From a phage, in sequence record PZ583739.1: a stretch of DNA of 64,000 bases, one strand, 5' to 3'. Shown here piece by piece: positions 9,132-62,152 of the stretch. Under the pieces are notes generated by a model. It worked only from the letters and a program-made list of their open reading frames with translations. It had not been told where the DNA came from and searched no databases. The number at the start of each line of letters is the position of its first letter. Positions within the stretch are counted from its first letter, which is position 1. The position numbers and the translations under genes are program-made.

Positions 9132-9827
9132 TTAATCTTGGAATTCGTGGCTAGAGCCTTGTTCCATTGCAATCACATAGCTTGCTTGTGTGCCTTCAAA
9201 CTTCGTAGCAAATTTATCATCTTTCGCCCAAAGCATAACACGGTAATCAGCCGGAATCATTTTCATATTCAGTTTGTTAATGATAAATTTAAACGCTGCA
9301 TCGCCTTCGTAATCGCCACACACCAGGGAATACAATGGACGCGCTAATTCTTTATCTTCGAGCTGGTTATAACCATGGATAACAATCTTACCGTCTTTGT
9401 TGGTGATTGCAAAAGTGTCCAGAGACAAACCACCAGCCACACGCAGAAGCTGCTGCAGGTCACTGCCTTTCAGGTCGAAGATAACCTTAGCTACCGGGAA
9501 AGGAATCTTCTTAGCAGGGAACACGATAGTGCTCGGGTCAGCTGCAGGCCAGTGAATCGTTGAACGTTGGTCTTTGATAATGATATTCGATGCATCTTCA
9601 GACAGAGATACTTCAGCTTGGTCAGTTACCAGGCCCAGGATACTTAAGAAGCCGTTCAGGTCATAAATTGCCGCTTCAAAGTCGATTGTATCATTGATTT
9701 CAGATTCACCATATGACGCTCCAGTTACAGAACGAGTTAGGATGGTATTGCCTGGTTTAAGCATAATGCCAGAGTAGATGGAGGTGAAGTTTTTCAAAAC
9801 TGCGATGGTGTCACGACTAAATTTCAT
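9132..9827 (-). CDS. 45: Sliding clamp gp45
   Basis: 231 aa; MKFSRDTIAVLKNFTSIYSGIMLKPG...FWPAADPST...LQQLLRV; collinear with T4 gp45. Confidence 0.95.
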   Translation of the reverse strand: MKFSRDTIAVLKNFTSIYSGIMLKPGNTILTRSVTGASYGESEINDTIDFEAAIYDLNGFLSILGLVTDQAEVSLSEDASNIIIKDQRSTIHWPAADPSTIVFPAKKIPFPVAKVIFDLKGSDLQQLLRVAGGLSLDTFAITNKDGKIVIHGYNQLEDKELARPLYSLVCGDYEGDAAFKFIINKLNMKMIPADYRVMLWAKDDKFATKFEGTQASYVIAMEQGSSHEFQD

Positions 9828-10711
9828 TTCATTTTCCTATTAACATAATAATTTGACCAGGACCGGATTGCACCCTGATAGTTTTCATCATTAAACCCAT
9901 GTTCAATGGCGTGTTTTCTAAACTTAATATACCCTGGTTGGCCTAAAGCATTCCACAATGCTTTAAGTTCATCTTCATACTGTAACCAGGTTCCTCTTGC
10001 TTTAGATTTCCTAAATTTTTCTTTAAATTCAGGGTTGGCATTTCGTTCGGTTGCTCGTTTTGAAGCCTTTATTCTATTATCTGAATTATTCCAATATTCA
10101 GTAATTGATTTTAAATATTTTTCATATACTTCAGATGTATTCATTATAGCTTTGAATTTTAAAGCATACTCAACATCTTTATAACGATTTTTGACTTCAA
10201 CAGACCTTGCTTGTCGAGCTTCGTCAGTCCAATATTCTTTTTGGAAGTCTTTAATTGCTTGAATGTGCTTATCTGAAATTGAACAATCTTTACGAACACC
10301 AACATAATCAGATGTAAGTTCAGATGGATGTAATTTAACAACTTTACCCGTTTTCAAGTTTCGGTATGGAGCATATCCAGGAGCATCATAGCGGCTTTTG
10401 TCGTGTGCATACGTTTTATTAAAGTATTTCTCATTGGTTACAGCTTTAACTGACATTTGAAAAATATTTTCTATTTTCCTTGGGTCCTGTTTTGTTTCCC
10501 CAATGATAGTAACAATATAGTCACCGCTATCAATTAATTCATTATACAGCGTAGTATATTTTGAATTCGGAGAACCTGTATAAATTTTATTATTTTTATC
10601 GAGAATATTTTGGCCATTAAATGTCGTATCAACCTTTGAACCAATATAATAACAAGGGAATTCATTATTTTGTTCCCTTGTTATAAAGGTTATTTTATAA
10701 ATCAAATTCAC
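9824..10711 (-). CDS. GIY-YIG family homing endonuclease (Seg-like), free-standing
   Basis: N-terminus LIYKITFITREQNNEFPCYYIGSK fits the GIY-(10-11 aa)-YIG motif; inserted between 45 and rpbA; basic C-terminal half. Confidence 0.7.
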   Translation of the reverse strand: MNLIYKITFITREQNNEFPCYYIGSKVDTTFNGQNILDKNNKIYTGSPNSKYTTLYNELIDSGDYIVTIIGETKQDPRKIENIFQMSVKAVTNEKYFNKTYAHDKSRYDAPGYAPYRNLKTGKVVKLHPSELTSDYVGVRKDCSISDKHIQAIKDFQKEYWTDEARQARSVEVKNRYKDVEYALKFKAIMNTSEVYEKYLKSITEYWNNSDNRIKASKRATERNANPEFKEKFRKSKARGTWLQYEDELKALWNALGQPGYIKFRKHAIEHGFNDENYQGAIRSWSNYYVNRKMK

Positions 10712-23131: not shown

Positions 23132-23812
23132 TTATTCATTATTCTTTTTCCTAGCATCAGAAGCAGCTTTTCTTCTAGCTCTGGTCCTTTCTAAATCAGC
23201 GGCAATCAAATTAGCTATATTAGTAACCGGATTACCAAATTCATCATAAGTAATATATTTCCAAGCATATCCAAATGTATGATTTCTCTCATTAAGAAGG
23301 CATCTTTTAATAGCACTGCCTGCTTTATAAATTGAAAGAAATTTAGCTGCATCTGGTAAATAATCAAAGGTTTCTACCAATTCACCTGAACTTAAATCAA
23401 ATGCGCCAAAAAGCTCAATGGTGTATTTACTCCTATCAAGACTGGCTTTAGCTTCATGCTTTAAGTGGTTTATTTCTTTTAGAATTTTAAGGTCTAATTG
23501 TCCTGGTATTTTATCTATCTGTACACCCATTCTAGATAAAGCATATCCCATTTTATAGTTTCCTGATTTGGCCAACCAATAGTGGGCCATAATATGGCTT
23601 TCTATACTTAGATTTACAAGATTCCATTTAGACGTTTTAAATTCAGGAAATAACGATTTAGGTAATATATGGTGAGACTCGGTTTTACCTTTTATTAAAG
23701 GTCCGGAAGACTCTATTAAAGAGAAATAGTTTTCAGCAAATTGCCTTATTGGCAATTTGCTTTTAAGAAGTTCTTTAATTTCGTCTAAGGTTTTAGTAGG
23801 CTTAACGGTCAC
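23132..23812 (-). CDS. HNH homing endonuclease (Mob-like), free-standing
   Basis: 226 aa; ESHHILPKSLFPEFKTSKWNLVNLSIESHIMAHYW matches the HNH motif of T4 Mob endonucleases. Confidence 0.65.
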   Translation of the reverse strand: MTVKPTKTLDEIKELLKSKLPIRQFAENYFSLIESSGPLIKGKTESHHILPKSLFPEFKTSKWNLVNLSIESHIMAHYWLAKSGNYKMGYALSRMGVQIDKIPGQLDLKILKEINHLKHEAKASLDRSKYTIELFGAFDLSSGELVETFDYLPDAAKFLSIYKAGSAIKRCLLNERNHTFGYAWKYITYDEFGNPVTNIANLIAADLERTRARRKAASDARKKNNE

Positions 23813-29679: not shown

Positions 29680-30426
29680 ATGATTTTGTCCGGAAGAACT
29701 ATTGATGAACTCAATGAAAAAGTCCAGGCCGCCTTGGCTGATAATTGGTATTTGTTTGGTTCTACTGTGGTGTTGCCAAATACACCTACGGATAGCAAAG
29801 AACGTTTTTTCCAAACTATGTCCAACTCGGAAACTCAGATACCGGGCCCGCCTGGACCAAAAGGAGAACCGGGTGTGTCCGGGCCCAAAGGAGACCCAGG
29901 CGGGGCTGGAAAATCTTCTTATCAGATATGGCTTGACTTGGGGAATACAGGAACTGTTGATGATTTTTTAACTGATACAGCGGGAAAGAGGGAAAAATCC
30001 GAGGTGTTTTGGAGTGGTATAAACGTTCTATTAACTAATGGTGCGACTTCAAACATAATTAGTATTTTAAAGGGGATTCCGCCGACAGCAGGGACTCTAT
30101 CTCCGTTTTTTAGAACCGCTGATGATAAGTTGTGGCCATATAACCAAGACAGAAGCCTAATGTTTAAACTCAACCTTATTGGTAATTTTACAGGAGCCTC
30201 GCAAGCTCGAAGTATAACATTAAATTTCGTTGGAACCAACGGAAACACTTATATACAGAATCGTCCGGAAAATGCTACAGATATTTTGTCTTTTACGACG
30301 TTCTTTAGCATTGATAAAGATGGGGCAATGGCAACCAATGGTACAGCTATAACTGTTACGCCAAATGGCGGCAACTTTACAATAACCTCTGCATTGTTAG
30401 TAGCCGAACAAACAGTGACTTCGTAA
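29680..30426 (+). CDS. Collagen-repeat fibre-like protein, 248 aa, on the opposite strand to its neighbours
   Basis: Strong RBS AAAGGAGAAAG 7 nt before ATG; seven Gly-X-Y triplets (GPPGPKGEPGVSGPKGDPGGAG) followed by KSSYQIWLDLGNTGTVDDFL, a motif I associate with phage tail-fibre proteins; Asn/Thr/Gly-rich C-terminus. Confidence 0.6.
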   Translation: MILSGRTIDELNEKVQAALADNWYLFGSTVVLPNTPTDSKERFFQTMSNSETQIPGPPGPKGEPGVSGPKGDPGGAGKSSYQIWLDLGNTGTVDDFLTDTAGKREKSEVFWSGINVLLTNGATSNIISILKGIPPTAGTLSPFFRTADDKLWPYNQDRSLMFKLNLIGNFTGASQARSITLNFVGTNGNTYIQNRPENATDILSFTTFFSIDKDGAMATNGTAITVTPNGGNFTITSALLVAEQTVTS

Positions 30427-54243: not shown

Positions 54244-54244
<1 letters not shown>

Positions 54245-54921
54245 TATATTACCTTATTAATTTTATCAAAAAGTTCTTCGAGTGTGCCATCGTTTTTAAT
54301 AACAATGTCACTAGCTAGTGGTGGAAGTCCAGCTTCCGTAATGTGTGTATCAGTAGAATGATTTGCTTCATCGCGTTCTACAAAGATTATTGTAGCACCC
54401 ATCGCCCGAAGCGAATCAAGTTCGTTCTTTTGGCGAACATCTGGGACAACGTAATATTTATATCCAGAATAGAGGTTGTCAAGATAGTCGCAGGCAAAAG
54501 TTTTAATCCAAAACATGCTGTCGAACTCTGTACAAACAATATCAGTTCCAAGGGTCTGCATGAAACGTCTAACTGTCCAGGGCTCAACATTATTTAGTGT
54601 GTGAAATTCAATAATTTTACGAACCATATCCGGATTCGGAAGGTCAAGATTGTATTGTTGTTTCAACCATTCAAGAGCATCAACCAGAAGAATATAAGCT
54701 TCGGTGTTGTTCATTATCAAGGTTTTTTCACGGTCATAACCTTGCCCATCAAAATTTTCCAGGGTCAAATTGTGTGGCAGGTCTTGACGAATCCACGCTT
54801 TATAAAGCGCTTCTTTAATCGGACCAGCAAGCTGCCACTTTGTTCCGTTTTGACTAATAACATAATCAGCAGTCGTATCTTTACCACTGCGTTTTTTACC
54901 CACAATCGCAATTAATTTCAT
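54244..54921 (-). CDS. 1: Deoxynucleoside monophosphate kinase gp1
   Basis: 225 aa; P-loop GKKRSGKDTTADYV; ...RAMGATIIFVERDEANHSTDTHITEAGLP as in T4 gp1. Confidence 0.92.
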
Positions 54922-55517
54922 ACGTTTCTCATAGATGGATGCATTGACTTAGACCTGATTTCCTGTTGCATTGCTGCATTACTATCAATCTGTGGTCTAC
55001 CTTCTATTATTATACCATCAATTTCTACAGCAAAAGACTTAAAGTTAAAAGTTGCTGTTGCATTGATAGCCGGGTCAGAATCTTCTTTATATGAGTACTG
55101 AATCTCTGACAGGTCGGACGGCCATGCTCCATAGTAATGGATTGACATGACAATTTTGTCCTTGTTGTTATCTAAGATATGAAGCGTGACCGCTTCGGGA
55201 CGACCCTTCGGATGCCATGCTTTTGATTCGTGTGTGATGTAGTTATTGAGCGAGAGCATCCATTTATAAATGTCAAGCCATGCTCTTAGGTCTTTGTCAC
55301 ACAGAAAGTTAACAATCAGCGGGTCGAATTCTATTGTACTACCAGGAAGACTGGAGCGATTTATACCTTGTGTTCCGCCCGGAACATCCGTCACAGGAAT
55401 GTGAACTCCAGGGAGGGTAACATCTTGAACATTGAGTTTAAAGGTCTGTGTGAGGTTTGAATCGCTTACCTCTAATATAAAGTTAGTCGTGTTAGTTTGA
55501 TTATATAAACCTGACAT
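54918..55517 (-). CDS. 3: gp3-like tail completion / sheath stabiliser protein
   Basis: Assigned by position between genes 1 and 2 (T4 order 1-3-2-4); start trimmed to first ATG (MSGLYNQ...); homology not verified. Confidence 0.5.
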   Translation of the reverse strand: MSGLYNQTNTTNFILEVSDSNLTQTFKLNVQDVTLPGVHIPVTDVPGGTQGINRSSLPGSTIEFDPLIVNFLCDKDLRAWLDIYKWMLSLNNYITHESKAWHPKGRPEAVTLHILDNNKDKIVMSIHYYGAWPSDLSEIQYSYKEDSDPAINATATFNFKSFAVEIDGIIIEGRPQIDSNAAMQQEIRSKSMHPSMRNV

Positions 55518-55602
55518 AGTGCACCTTGTTTGCTTTAAAACAATCAGTGTTATAATGGTTCTAGACCTTTTGTCCTTACCAATAACACTGACCGACAATA
55601 GA

Positions 55603-56277
55603 TTATTTTATTAATGTGTTAAGTCTTAGCTTAGTCATAAACGGATAACGTTCCAACATTGGCTTTACCCAGTATCGAGGATGCAATTCCTTTTTATATG
55701 CTAGGACCAACTCTCGAGCTTGCTCGATGGTATCAACTCCGAAGTTTTTGCACATTTCTTGCCTATCTTTTTCCCACCGGCGCTTTCTCAATTCATCCTG
55801 AATCTCTTTATTTTTAAAATGTCCATTATTGCGAGAATGTTTTGTACCCTTGGTTGGACTGTAATGTCTTCCTTTGACAAACCCATCCGGAACATCTTCC
55901 CATGGAAATAGTTTTATCGATTTTACACCATTATTAAAGTAAACTTTACCGGTTTGGCTTTTAGAAATATTGTCAGCGTGTCTGCGTCTTAACCAGCCAA
56001 ATAATTTATTATTGCGTTTCAAATACTTGCTTGACTGGCTCATAGATGTGGCAGCAAAACTTAAACCTGGATTTGTAGGATATATTTTAACCAATAGTTG
56101 ATGGGCTACATAATGTTCTTCGGGAGTCAAATCGACTAAGTTATCCGGAGCATTTGAACCACCCATACATTTCGGAATGATGTGATGAGATTCTTTATAT
56201 GAAATCAGGACCCTGTTACGGGCCCTTTCAATTAACGATGAATATATAAACTGATAATTCAAAGTGAATTTCTCCAT
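55603..56277 (-). CDS. HNH homing endonuclease, free-standing, inserted between genes 3 and 2
   Basis: 224 aa; [31 protein letters not shown] is a canonical HNH motif; basic C-terminal DNA-binding-like region. Confidence 0.75.
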
Positions 56278-57086
56278 ACTTTCTGTGAAGAAAATCTTTT
56301 GCCTTTTGAAAAAAACTGCTGAAGGGGGAGTAATACCACATTTGCCCAGTCGCTGGGCTTGATTTCAGTAATAGTACCTTTTATATTGCCAGGTATATAT
56401 GCTTTAATCATCTGGTCAGCCCCTTTAAATCCCTTCACTTTTGACCAATCAATCTTCAGATGAGTCTTGTTCGTAATCGTAGGAGTATTAGCATATTGCT
56501 TAAGAAGTTCCTCAAGGAACTCTTGACGTGCCTTCGGTGGAATATAGTGCAAGTTCAAACCATACATCAAATTGTGCTTACCTAGCCCAAGATAAATGAT
56601 TAACGGATATTTGTCCCAGTACGGAAGAGTATCCTTATGCTTTGCATCATAGATATAAGCATAAATCTTACCCGGTTGAGGTTTAGCCGTTACGTGGCCC
56701 CGAACTGATTTCTTAATTGTCTCTGCGAACCATCTGGCAGATTTGGTGTTGCTTGCGGCGCCTTCGTTAGCAATCTTATCTCTTATGCTCTTTCTAAAGC
56801 TATTCACCATTATCAGCTGACGTTCAGCCTTCGTAAGTTTACCGGCAGGTTTCTTTTTGAGCTTGGATACTTTATAAGCAGTCTGAATTCTCGAATGATA
56901 TCTTGACATGCTTTTGGTAAAGGTCGAATAGTTGATTCCTTTCTCTTCAGCAAACTTCTTCGAGGTCATTCCCTTTTCTTTTGCTGTATAAAATTCAACC
57001 CCTATCTCAACCCATTGTTGTTCGGATTTACTGGGTTTCGGACCTGGTTTATCTGCAGATTCATTGATAAATGTAAAAATACTCAT
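56259..57086 (-). CDS. 2: DNA end-protector protein gp2
   Basis: 275 aa from ATG at 57086 (ATGA overlap with upstream stop); size and position match T4 gp2. Confidence 0.75.
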
Positions 57087-57811
57087 CCTTTCCATCCTTC
57101 TATAAAATTAATCAAATCATTTTTTAAATAGTATGGTAAGGTTTCTGTATAGCCATCGACCATAATATCTTTATTCAAATAACCTCTGTCTTTTATATAT
57201 AATACAGATATTGCGGATTCTAACATTTTGGCTTGTGCACCCAGTTCAAATTCTCGATAATATAATTTGGAACTAATGCATTTGGAAAAATGATTTTGCT
57301 GCCACAATCTAAAATCATGATTGGAAGTTATACCATACTTTAAAGCAGTTCCGCCTGGATATTCTATTTTATTAACATAAACAATAGCAGGTTTCTTTGC
57401 GTTAAATCCTTTGTGACAACAGTTTGGACATCCTTTGTTTTTTGTTGTAAAGTTGTTTAGATTTGTAATCCAACTGGTTGAACACGTAGAACACTTTATA
57501 TAGGCTTTTGATTTTGTAAAAGTTGAATATGTGGTATCCCATTTATCAAAACTATACAATGGATTCACGGAATTTATTCTTGTGATTGCATCTAATTCAG
57601 ATATTAATTTGCTTTCACCATAAGAACGTTTTAAATTACAATTAGAACACCAACTTTTTGTTTTTAACTTATGCTTTAAAACAGTTGCTTTGTATTTGCA
57701 TGTTTCTTCACATATAAAGCACTTTACAAATATCAAAGTTTTTGATTTATTAAAATCGCCTTGTCCCACTATCTCGCCATTTGTGATGTTAAAATCTGAA
57801 CAATCGTACAT
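57083..57811 (-). CDS. Cys-rich putative endonuclease, inserted between genes 2 and 4
   Basis: 242 aa; N-terminal CxxC pairs ([13 protein letters not shown]) and second cluster CSTCS...CPNCCH; C-terminal [21 protein letters not shown] is GIY-YIG-like; genes 2 and 4 are adjacent in T4. Confidence 0.4.
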
Positions 57812-58263
57812 TATAAACCCTTATATCCCATTTTTCTAAGTGCATCTTCAGTAATCAATCTAAACTGGATGCCCATTTTATCGGCTACGGCCTGCGCTGC
57901 TTTCCACTTATCCTTGTTAACGGCCCAAGTGTACATTTCGTTCATAAACCTCTTCTTACTTGCAGCGGTCGTATTGACTGGTTTTGCCGGCGGCCTTGTT
58001 TCCTTTTTGGGTTTGACCTCAAAGAAAAACTGTTGTCCATTTGAGAATTTCACCCACATATCCATGTAATATCTGCGTTTTTTACCATCCGCATTACTGA
58101 AATATGGAATAATTACGGTCTCAGAGCCCCATTGTATCACATCTGGATGATTATCTAACCAATTAAATACAAATTTTTCCCAATTTGACCTGTATGTGAT
58201 TTTCTTCCAGTCTCCTTTGTACTTGGCAACGTTTTTTGGCTGCCACTTCCCGGAGTATGCCAT
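57811..58263 (-). CDS. 4: Head completion protein gp4
   Basis: 150 aa; position and size as T4 gp4; late promoter TATAAATA 29 nt upstream. Confidence 0.8.
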   Translation of the reverse strand: MAYSGKWQPKNVAKYKGDWKKITYRSNWEKFVFNWLDNHPDVIQWGSETVIIPYFSNADGKKRRYYMDMWVKFSNGQQFFFEVKPKKETRPPAKPVNTTAASKKRFMNEMYTWAVNKDKWKAAQAVADKMGIQFRLITEDALRKMGYKGL

Positions 58264-58291
58264 ATAGCCTCCTAATAAATATTGATATACT

Positions 58292-58299
58292 TATTTATA
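58292..58299 (-). promoter_or_regulatory. T4 late promoter TATAAATA for gene 4
   Basis: Exact TATAAATA on minus strand. Confidence 0.55.
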
Positions 58300-58303
58300 A
58301 ATG
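58296..58303 (+). promoter_or_regulatory. Late-promoter-like TATAAATG for gene 53 (divergent from gene 4 promoter)
   Basis: 7/8 match to TATAAATA on plus strand, overlapping the minus-strand promoter in a near-palindrome; 8 nt before the ATG. Confidence 0.35.
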
Positions 58304-61185: not shown

Positions 61186-61478
61186 TGGCTGGATTAAGTT
61201 TCAATCAATGTGTTACAGCAGGCCACGAAGCATGGCCACCGACTGTAATTAATGCAACTCAAGGTAAAGTATTCACCGGGGGAATTCCGGTGTTAGTTGC
61301 CGGAGACCCTATTACCGAGCATACCGAAATTAAAAAACCATATGAAACTCACGGTGGAGTAACACAACCGCGCACATCAAAAGTATTTGTTACCGGTAAG
61401 AAAGCTGTTCAAATGGCAGACCCGATTTCATGTGGTGATACTGTCGCACAAGCTTCAGGGAAGGTGTTCATAAAATGA
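61185..61478 (+). CDS. 5.4: PAAR-repeat spike-tip protein gp5.4
   Basis: 97 aa; PAAR-like motifs ([20 protein letters not shown]); position after gene 5. Confidence 0.85.
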
Positions 61479-62152
61479 ACAAAGAATTTAATTTTGTATA
61501 TGTAACTACAAACCTAGAAAATGGTAAAAAGTATATAGGCAAACATTCTACTGACGATATGTTTGATGGATATTACGGCACAGGGGAGCTTATCAAAAAG
61601 GCTTATAAAAAATATGGAAAGGATTCGTTTGAGACAAAAATAATAAAATTTTTTGATACTGAAGATGAAGCTTACGACTACGAAGAATTTTTAGTAGACG
61701 AATCTATAATTTATGATGATAGATATTATAATATAGATTTGGGTGGCAAAGGAAGTATGCGAGGAAGAAAGCATAAGGAATCTTCAAAAAAGCAAACATC
61801 AGACAAAATGAAGGGTAGGCCAAAGCCACCTAGAAGTAAAGAACATATTGAAAATTTTGAAAAAGCTATGGCCAAAAGGAGAAAACCTAAGCTACCTCCA
61901 AAACCGAGGGTTTTTGTTAGAGGAGAAGAGCATCCTTTATATAAAAGACCAAGACCTCAATCTGTTATTGACCTATGCAAACTTAATAATAGAAAACACC
62001 CCATTTGGCAATCATATGATATTTTATTCAAATTATGGAAAGAAAATGATAAGCCAGGTTGGAGAAAAATGACACGATTGGCCATTGAAAACGGATTTCC
62101 AAATACGGCTTATGACAAAATGATAAAACAATTTAAACAGGATTCAGAATAA
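61475..62152 (+). CDS. GIY-YIG homing endonuclease (Seg-like), inserted between 5.4 and 6
   Basis: 225 aa; [19 protein letters not shown] fits GIY-x10-YIG; basic Lys/Arg/Pro-rich C-terminal half; AT-rich relative to neighbours. Confidence 0.8.

Follow-up and report, generated by a model that had tools for sequence, protein, structure and literature searches.

This work concerns two open reading frames (ORFs) that lie between structural genes in 64,000 nucleotides (nt) of phage DNA (sequence record PZ583739.1; the whole stretch is hereafter called the window): an HNH gene at 55603-56277 and ORF242, a gene for 242 amino acids (aa) at 57083-57811. The source is a T4-like coliphage of the genus Gaprivervirus (VR7/SP18 group), nearest to phage RZ. 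Between 52 and 64 kilobases (kb) the window is 96-100% identical to RZ once two insertions and the short stretches that flank them are set aside, and a single match in phage fPSFA covers 54900-58300 at 97.8%. The minus strand carries gene 1, gene 3, the HNH gene, gene 2, ORF242 and gene 4 in that order, with gene 2 flanked on both sides by endonuclease genes; on the plus strand follow genes 53, 5, 5.1, 5.4 (PAAR), an ORF of 225 aa (61475-62152) and gene 6 (Table 1). Neighbouring genes were identified by their matches to Pfam and PHROGs profiles. T4 has only an empty spacer of 106 nt between genes 3 and 2, and its genes 2 and 4 share a 1-nt overlap.

Homing endonucleases of the free-standing kind are a shaping force in the mosaic genomes of T4-like phages, and two more homing endonuclease genes (HEGs) in such a phage are to be expected. 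We read both ORFs as free-standing HEGs, selfish site-specific nucleases residing in the late operon of genes 4, 2 and 3, and we assign this reading a probability of roughly 0.8.

Table 1 Position, strand and supporting evidence for the features of the window
Feature	Coordinates	Strand	Evidence
Plausible fifth HEG, 295 aa, upstream of gene 45 (9132-9827)	9824-10711	-	phrog_7504 'homing endonuclease' 3.9e-14
HNH gene	23132-23812		phrog_655 3.5e-28
Gene 1, deoxynucleoside monophosphate (dNMP) kinase	54244-54921	-	Pfam DNMK 4e-77
Gene 3, tail completion / sheath stabilizer	54918-55517	-	phrog_45 3.7e-48; Pfam Phage_T4_gp19
Spacer, 85 nt, upstream of gene 3	55518-55602	-	alignment and relatives' annotations
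Mob-type HNH gene, 224 aa, ATG start	55603-56277	-	phrog_655 2.4e-56
Gene 2, DNA end protector	56259-57086	-	phrog_429 1.8e-78
ORF242, T5orf172-family gene, 242 aa, ATG start	57083-57811	-	phrog_681 2.5e-29
Retained ancestral gene 4 end GGATGGAAAGGATGA (...GWKG, stop, ATGA overlap with gene 2)	57083-57097	-	identity with the VR20/VR25 junction
ORF242 C-terminal T5orf172-type GIY-YIG nuclease domain, residues 136-242	57086-57406	-	homologue alignment
ORF242 two tandem zinc-finger modules (treble-clef / CapR-like), residues 12-135	57407-57778	-	Pfam, alignment, AlphaFold2 model
Gene 4, head completion, TnsA-like fold	57811-58263	-	phrog_218 3.2e-61
T4-type late promoter consensus TATAAATA	58292-58299	-	exact match upstream of gene 4
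Seg-like GIY-YIG HEG between genes 5.4 (PAAR) and 6	61475-62152	+	Pfam GIY-YIG, SegE_GIY-YIG; phrog_314 1.9e-42

Both ORFs are clean insertions that close relatives carry or lack independently of each other. Genes 1, 3 and 2, which the compared Gapriverviruses share, are mostly 93-100% identical to the window, and the inserts vary independently among genomes that are 90-99% identical across the region. VR20 is empty at both junctions, with alignment gaps at 55606-56264 (between genes 3 and 2, the 3/2 junction) and 57094-57824 (between genes 2 and 4, the 2/4 junction). RZ and DK-13 have an empty 3/2 junction and ORF242 at 2/4, VR25 and VR7 have the HNH gene at 3/2 and an empty 2/4 junction, and fPSFA, like the window, has both genes. 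At the 2/4 site of P479 and PSD2001 stands an unrelated Seg-like HEG of 215 aa (GIY-YIG plus NUMOD3), accompanied at 3/2 by the HNH gene in P479 and by an empty junction in PSD2001. The HNH gene is further present in UPEC07, and ORF242 is also missing from VR26, SP18 and others, so that its presence varies in a region that, gene 4 excepted, is mostly more than 90% identical. Both genes thus bear the signature of HEGs: ORF242 in its variable presence and its place between genes 4 and 2, an essential-gene neighbourhood, and the HNH gene in its free-standing position between conserved genes, its variable presence and its same-site orthologues. A preliminary description of this DNA had proposed free-standing, HEG-like genes at exactly these coordinates, between pairs of genes that are adjacent in T4; comparative synteny bears this out, and the flanking genes are likewise adjacent in insert-free relatives, both gaps in VR20 being clean.

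The insertions are codon-precise at both junctions. The HNH cassette is located between the end of gene 2 and the 85-nt spacer, which is also found, one substitution apart, in insert-free relatives; it begins just before the stop of the resident gene 2, bringing a new TGA to that gene and taking the old TAA for itself. ORF242 joins gene 4 through a TAATG overlap and gene 2 through an ATGA overlap, and its final 15 nt, GGATGGAAAGGATGA, are exactly the sequence with which gene 4 ends in VR20 and VR25, both without an insert here. The Seg-like gene of P479 also terminates in GGAAAGGATGA. Because these end sequences are shared, it appears that HEGs of both kinds entered within the last codons of gene 4 while the coupling to gene 2 was kept. 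In Yersinia phage MHG19, a 17-nt direct repeat, GGATGGAAAGGATAATG, borders a T5orf172-type HEG cassette (locus L005, 2499-3227). The downstream copy of this repeat is intact in the window, whose upstream copy, where gene 4 ends, has diverged and is longer by one codon; without the repeat the insert could be less prone to deletion, or a recognition site could have been lost.

Domains and families of the two inserted genes

On its domain content and its relatives, ORF242 is a free-standing homing endonuclease gene of the T5orf172 family, within the GIY-YIG superfamily. Its direct profile matches are to phrog_681, a family labelled 'endonuclease', and, below the cut-off, to the treble-clef zinc finger DUF4379 of Pfam (4.6e-4, residues 100-133). 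A word-indexed protein search returned only two matches, the identical cluster and the orthologue in MHG19, and an exhaustive HMMER search recovered 1097 related cluster representatives; the family is therefore visible only through exhaustive searching. When 40 full-length homologues were aligned and scanned singly against Pfam, CapR was found in 30 of them, DUF4379 in 32, MUG113 in 20, T5orf172 in 14 and GIY-YIG in five, so that the T5orf172/MUG113 domain (PF10544 / PF13455) is assigned to ORF242 through homology and not by direct match. Among the relatives recovered with phmmer, P0004 (4.2e-34) and P0005 (1.4e-29) both exceed the T5orf172 cut-off in the aligned C-terminal domain, P0005 with 30.6 bits and with a MUG113 score that is also above its cut-off, and P0059 (25.3 bits) and P0094 exceed that of PF01541 GIY-YIG. 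The MHG19 orthologue, 69% identical to ORF242 and lodged at the same 2/4 site, scores 30.6 bits for CapR (cut-off 24.2), 27.2 for DUF4379 (24.5) and 19.5 for T5orf172 (20).

The predicted zinc ligands of the two N-terminal modules are C31, C34, C55 and C58, and C107, C110, C128 and C131; in the 40 homologues C128 and C131 never vary, conservation of C55 and C58 is at least 90%, and an AlphaFold2 model shows a beta-beta-beta-alpha unit twice in this region. The C-terminal domain, at the opposite terminus from the fingers, follows the motif KPAxxY...KYGITN...R...G..A...E...PDGYTETL. Invariant among the homologues are Y145, K158, G160, R168, G191, E198, G220 and E223, which include the GIY-YIG-type core (Y145, K158, G160, R168, E198 and E223), with either E198 or E223 as the counterpart of I-TevI E75 and Odn E180. 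The AlphaFold2 model, with a mean predicted local distance difference test score (pLDDT) of 91.6, gives the C-terminal domain a beta-beta-alpha-beta-alpha-alpha arrangement. A search of PDB sequences with the family profile found only zinc-ribbon (DUF4379) proteins of the kinetoplastid mitoribosome and no nuclease, and NCBIfam returned nothing useful for either ORF242 or the HNH protein. In the profile searches, no match to a non-nuclease family overturned the nuclease reading.

The guanine-cytosine (GC) content of ORF242 is 0.298, against 0.39-0.41 in the flanking genes. Relative to the MHG19 orthologue, the ratio of non-synonymous to synonymous substitution rates (omega) is 0.155 overall and 0.11-0.19 in each of three domains, which argues that the nuclease domain is being maintained and is not decaying. 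DK-13, fPSFA and some metagenomic contigs encode the protein with 100% identity, and the gene is annotated as "hypothetical" in RZ, DK-13, fPSFA and MHG19. Taken with the value for the HNH gene given below, both ORFs are under purifying selection (omega 0.15-0.23). The possibility that either ORF is a chance reading frame or a pseudogene was rejected, as homologues exist for both and omega is below 0.25.

The HNH gene is, as far as its sequence and relatives indicate, a free-standing homing endonuclease gene of the Mob type. The phrog_655 family that it matches is labelled 'homing endonuclease'; Pfam HNH and HNH_5 match weakly, at E of about 0.01 (HNH 0.011, below the cut-off). The HNH motif (HH...N...H), with its catalytic His, Asn and His, is intact near the N-terminus, at residues 27-59, and aligns with the HNH domain of McrA. 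The gene is annotated as 'similar to T4 MobB' in VR25, and its HNH part is about 47% identical, by tblastn, to the N-terminal part of T-even genes annotated as mobE, for instance in RB10. Relatives occur in more than 1000 phage records. A 60% identical orthologue in Tequatrovirus ESh30 stands at the same junction of genes 2 and 3, and relative to it omega is 0.227. The ORF list and UPEC07 place the start at ATG 56277, whereas VR25, P479 and ESh30 are annotated with TTG 56262, a codon that overlaps the stop of gene 2 as TTGA and is preceded by GGAG at 9-nt spacing; the gene may thus begin at the TTG instead of the ATG. The protein resembles T4 MobB and MobE in its N-terminal HNH motif and in being encoded by a free-standing gene between conserved genes, and it differs from the T4 Mob proteins in that its site between genes 2 and 3 is empty in T4 and that Pfam recognises no DNA-binding domain in its C-terminal half.

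At the 3' end of gene 2, some 12 substitutions within 30 nt (56307-56336) split VR20 from the window, RZ, VR25 and P479. This cluster was considered as a flank signature of the HNH gene and rejected, because RZ, without the gene, has the window sequence.

The family to which ORF242 is assigned has been described largely in vibriophage ICP1 and in T5-like phages. The CapR zinc-finger domain received its name from Netter et al. (2021), who followed its origin to proteins of phage ICP1 with a C-terminal T5orf172 domain; CapR itself, a satellite protein that represses transcription, descends from such HEGs (PMC8096241). Barth, Dunham and Seed (2023) regard T5orf172 genes as a HEG family, 87% of which carry CapR, DUF723 or DUF4397 fingers, often repeated, and which sit beside essential genes at boundaries of genetic exchange; they report no T5orf172 genes in T4 and list other lineages as enriched (PMC10448857). 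The preliminary description had recognised the combination of N-terminal CxxC clusters with a C-terminal GIY-YIG-like domain in ORF242, and the HNH character of the other gene, and both assignments hold; it had also called that combination unusual, which does not, since the zinc-finger plus C-terminal GIY-YIG build is standard for T5orf172 homing endonucleases (the 87% above; CapR in 30 of the 40 homologues). The pairing is unusual only relative to the Seg proteins of T4 itself, in which the nuclease is N-terminal.

Like gp165, gp174 and other ICP1 proteins (PMC10448857), the ORF242 product has repeated N-terminal fingers and a C-terminal T5orf172 domain, and, like their genes, ORF242 adjoins essential structural genes, varies among relatives and marks the boundary of an identity block. 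It differs in residing in a T4-like coliphage (Tevenvirinae) and in being too divergent for a direct Pfam match to T5orf172 or CapR. Its cysteine spacing is CxxC-20/17-CxxC, against CxxC-24/26-CxC in CapR; a CapR-like repressor was rejected as an identification, because ORF242 keeps a complete and constrained C-terminal nuclease domain. T5.141 of phage T5 (tblastn E=8e-17, 36% identity; Pfam results identical to those of the family member P0008) and the 'endonuclease' of JSE/RB49 (RB49ORF239C-like) are direct sequence relatives. Both have CapR and DUF4379 fingers and a C-terminal domain as in ORF242, and both are encoded between virion genes, although at different sites: the T5 gene separates the tail assembly chaperone from the tape measure, and that of JSE stands between genes 2 and 3, as against genes 2 and 4 here. 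The JSE protein is longer, at 380 aa, with extra finger modules, and the literature search found no biochemical characterisation of T5.141 or of the JSE/RB49 endonuclease.

The only T5orf172 nuclease for which we found in vitro cleavage data in the literature is Odn (ICP1 gp88), whose domain cuts double-stranded DNA in a sequence-directed manner and loses this activity when a conserved Glu is mutated (E180A) (PMC8263062). Odn and ORF242 share the nuclease domain family with its conserved catalytic Arg and Glu; Odn differs in having a RepA_N DNA-binding domain and the replication origin of a satellite as its target, and in being a defence nuclease, not a homing element. The Seg proteins of T4 and I-TevI belong to the same superfamily and are likewise built of nuclease and DNA-binding modules as beads on a string, but their order is reversed, with the nuclease N-terminal, and ORF242 has CapR-type fingers instead of NUMOD or helix-turn-helix modules. 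That ORF242 might be a Seg-type enzyme was rejected: its nuclease is C-terminal, it has no PF01541 match and an hhalign comparison gave a probability of 0.4%. A T5orf172/CapR-finger endonuclease, from a family known mainly from vibriophage ICP1 and T5-like phages, is hereby placed in T-even-type coliphages.

Divergence of gene 4 beside the occupied junction

Compared with VR20 and VR25, both empty at 2/4, the window is mostly 95-100% identical over genes 1, 3 and 2, except for a brief drop at the 3' end of gene 2. Exactly at the 2/4 junction the identity falls to 68-77%; it does not recover anywhere within gene 4 and is abruptly back at 100% where the start codon of that gene lies, around 58248. 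In a search that covered all phage records, gene 4 of the window was only 71.8-73.6% identical at the DNA level to that of all 23 listed Gaprivervirus records with an empty 2/4 junction, which places it no closer to them than to other genera. DNA identity of at least 89.6% was confined to seven records (six phages) with a HEG at 2/4: DK-13, RZ and fPSFA carry ORF242, whereas the Seg-like gene is present in P479 and PSD2001 and is deduced for P8 from its annotation and match pattern. At the protein level, the gp4 alleles of occupied sites are 98-100% identical among themselves and 77-80% identical to those of empty sites; for gp4 of the window the latter range is 77-79%. The differences between the ORF242-linked and the Seg-linked gene 4 alleles are mostly synonymous (synonymous divergence, dS, 0.75; omega 0.02).

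SegF and SegG of T4 cut at a distance and co-convert flanking genes, and among the HEGs of T-even phages an adjacent, cleavage-resistant flank is known to accompany those for SegF, SegG and MobE. We applied this model to gene 4, where the distribution of alleles looks like a tract of co-conversion or immunity. A HEG that travels with an adjacent cleavage-resistant flank would produce such a pattern, which suggests gene 4 or the 4/2 junction as the place of the ORF242 target. The link between occupancy and gene 4 allele thereby offers a concrete prediction of where the target is located.

Within this one genus, gene 4 exists as at least three strongly diverged alleles, each found with a different state of its junctions: empty junctions, a HEG at 2/4, or a Mob-like HNH gene at the junction of genes 4 and 53 (4/53), as in UPEC07. 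The divergence among the alleles is confined to the coding sequence.

In UPEC07 a third allele of gene 4 accompanies that further Mob-like HNH gene, which lies on the opposite side of gene 4, in the 4/53 spacer (L014:4111-4818), and this shows the surroundings of gene 4 to be a general hotspot. Across isolates, gene 4 is flanked by three unrelated endonuclease families, T5orf172 and Seg-like at 2/4 and Mob-like HNH at 4/53. We tentatively put forward, as a possibility that we ourselves find somewhat doubtful, that Gaprivervirus gene 4 is a contested homing site, at which T5orf172 and Seg-like HEGs make use of one shared allele, foreign and presumably cleavage-resistant, and UPEC07 has its own. 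If true, this would mean that HEGs have succeeded one another on an immunity allele that they share, and these E. coli phages would provide, as far as the literature we found goes, the first genetically tractable system for demonstrating homing, choice of target and co-conversion by an endonuclease of the T5orf172/CapR-finger kind. Natural carriers (RZ, DK-13), non-carriers (VR20, VR25) and phages with another HEG (P479, PSD2001) form a ready-made set for a homing test, of which we found no report in the literature for this family.

Proposed expression and homing, and alternative readings

The expression route, cleavage, target position and homing of the two genes we infer as follows. From gene 4 to gene 3, the sole exact match to the late promoter consensus TATAAATA is the one upstream of gene 4, the next downstream falling within gene 1 (54455-54462), and within this stretch neither HEG has an exact match of its own. 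Window-wide such matches are no more frequent than chance predicts, and the use of this promoter is suggested by its position. Scans of the region for separate sigma-70-like and terminator-like signals of the HEGs gave chance-level results. Transcription of both HEGs would probably start at the late promoter of gene 4, with translation passing through the overlaps, TAATG between gene 4 and ORF242, ATGA between ORF242 and gene 2, and TTGA or a nearby ATG between gene 2 and the HNH gene; read-through late transcription with coupled translation seems the simplest reading of this arrangement.

For ORF242, the prediction is that a long DNA site is recognised by the two N-terminal finger modules and cut by the C-terminal domain. 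During mixed infection with a relative that lacks the HEG, the enzyme would cut the empty allele in or near the junction, and recombinational repair would copy the HEG and adjacent donor sequence into the recipient by co-conversion. For ORF242, the co-converted and cleavage-resistant sequence is most likely the linked divergent gene 4 allele, for which reason its target would probably be the 3' part of gene 4 or the 4/2 junction.

Several observations weigh against the homing reading or parts of it. ORF242 itself reaches no Pfam nuclease model, and T5orf172 is absent from its hmmscan results even at E<=10. Foldseek searches of the PDB with the whole model or the isolated C-terminal domain found nothing significant, I-TevI ranking 30th (E=6.2), and the hhalign comparison of the C-terminal profile with a five-sequence Seg alignment, mentioned above, is a weak negative, the template being shallow (effective number of sequences, Neff, about 2.3). 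As of Barth et al. (2023), homing by the ICP1 T5orf172 genes had not been experimentally verified (PMC10448857), and our literature search found no report of homing for the family. For the HNH gene, no flank signature separates genomes that carry it from those that lack it, RZ being without the gene and equal to the window at the gene 2 end. The number of independent lineages behind the association between gene 4 and occupancy is small, perhaps two or three, and the association could reflect one imported block in place of nuclease-driven co-conversion. Finally, in MHG19 the 3' end of gene 4 beside the HEG resembles the empty-site sequence, from which it follows that gene 4 divergence is not required for coexistence with a HEG.

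The few lineages behind the gene 4 association, the frequency with which HEGs decay and the behaviour of the 2/4 junction as a recombination breakpoint even without a HEG, seen in the third gene 4 allele of UPEC07, would all suit a reading in which the inserts are inactive relics, brought in by block recombination from an unsampled phage (for example a HEG together with gene 4), with lineage sorting and deletions accounting for the present pattern. We consider this highly improbable, given that both ORFs are intact, retain residues of catalytic type and show purifying selection over a dS of about 1.5 relative to distant same-site orthologues, and that the ORF242 protein is unchanged in metagenomic contigs as well as in DK-13 and fPSFA. 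In T4, Seg and Mob activity is known to bring about marker exclusion as a side effect, and this counts toward the view that one or both nucleases serve mainly as weapons, for exclusion between phages or for defence against satellites and other parasites in the manner of Odn, which demonstrates that retargeting to a parasite is possible for a T5orf172 nuclease (PMC8263062). Odn, however, derives its specificity from a RepA_N domain and not from CapR-type fingers, no satellite-related sequence was seen, and inserts at orthologous junctions across genera, with linked flank alleles, fit homing into an allelic site; a primary role as weapons is therefore very unlikely, and exclusion and homing are in any case compatible with each other.

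ORF242 could, alternatively, be a domesticated and immobile derivative of a HEG, a DNA-binding regulator that tunes the late genes 4 and 2 as CapR or I-TevI autorepression might. Its fingers do fall within the CapR homology family, CapR being a repressor of HEG origin (PMC8096241), and purifying selection and a position inside the late operon, with no exact late-promoter match of its own, would accord with such a role. Yet the nuclease domain that CapR lacks is complete in ORF242, where every residue invariant in the family is retained and omega is 0.19. The gene is dispensable, being absent from most Gapriverviruses, an unrelated Seg-like HEG replaces it at the same site, and its low GC content and linked foreign gene 4 allele argue for mobility, all of which renders the regulatory reading very unlikely. 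We accordingly retain the reading of both ORFs as free-standing HEGs.

Further nuclease genes and neighbouring features

The preliminary description had counted five free-standing, HEG-like genes in the 64 kb, and this is a fair count. The gene at 61475-62152, which it had called GIY-YIG, has a canonical N-terminal GIY-YIG domain of the Seg type, and the one at 23132-23812, which it had called HNH, belongs to the same PHROGs family as the HNH gene at the 3/2 junction (Table 1). A plausible fifth member is the ORF at 9824-10711, for which no Pfam family matched; its N-terminus is GIY-YIG-like (IYKITF...YYIGS), and its C-terminus shares a 44-aa motif, at 36% identity, with the protein of 61475-62152. 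The ORF at 29680-30426 (+), a plus-strand ORF amid minus-strand genes, was considered as a HEG and rejected on its match to phrog_1030, 'tail needle knob' (1.5e-66).

Among the listed relatives, the gene at 61475-62152 is present only in VR26 (94.7%) and in two Dhakavirus CLB_P2 records (84.6%); in T4, segC lies nearby, between genes 5.1 and 5.3. Over the last 75 nt or so of gene 5.4 (61400-61475), the window is 88% identical to RZ, which has no insert, and 97% identical to VR26, which has one, and the stretch looks like a short co-conversion tract.

The start of gene 3, read directly, is the ATG at 55517, and the gene is annotated as 600 nt in relatives; the mechanical ORF runs on to a TTG at 55598. 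For gene 2, the native ATG is at 57086 and the ORF list begins at an in-frame upstream ATG at 57095. The product of gene 2 is 99.3% identical in amino acid sequence to gp2 of VR20; its first 80 or so residues match phrog_32288, 'HTH DNA binding protein' (1.8e-28), and phrog_429 covers residues 81-277. The product of gene 4 matches Pfam Tn7_TnsA-like_N, an endonuclease fold (1.9e-22), and is labelled 'head completion nuclease' in one relative.

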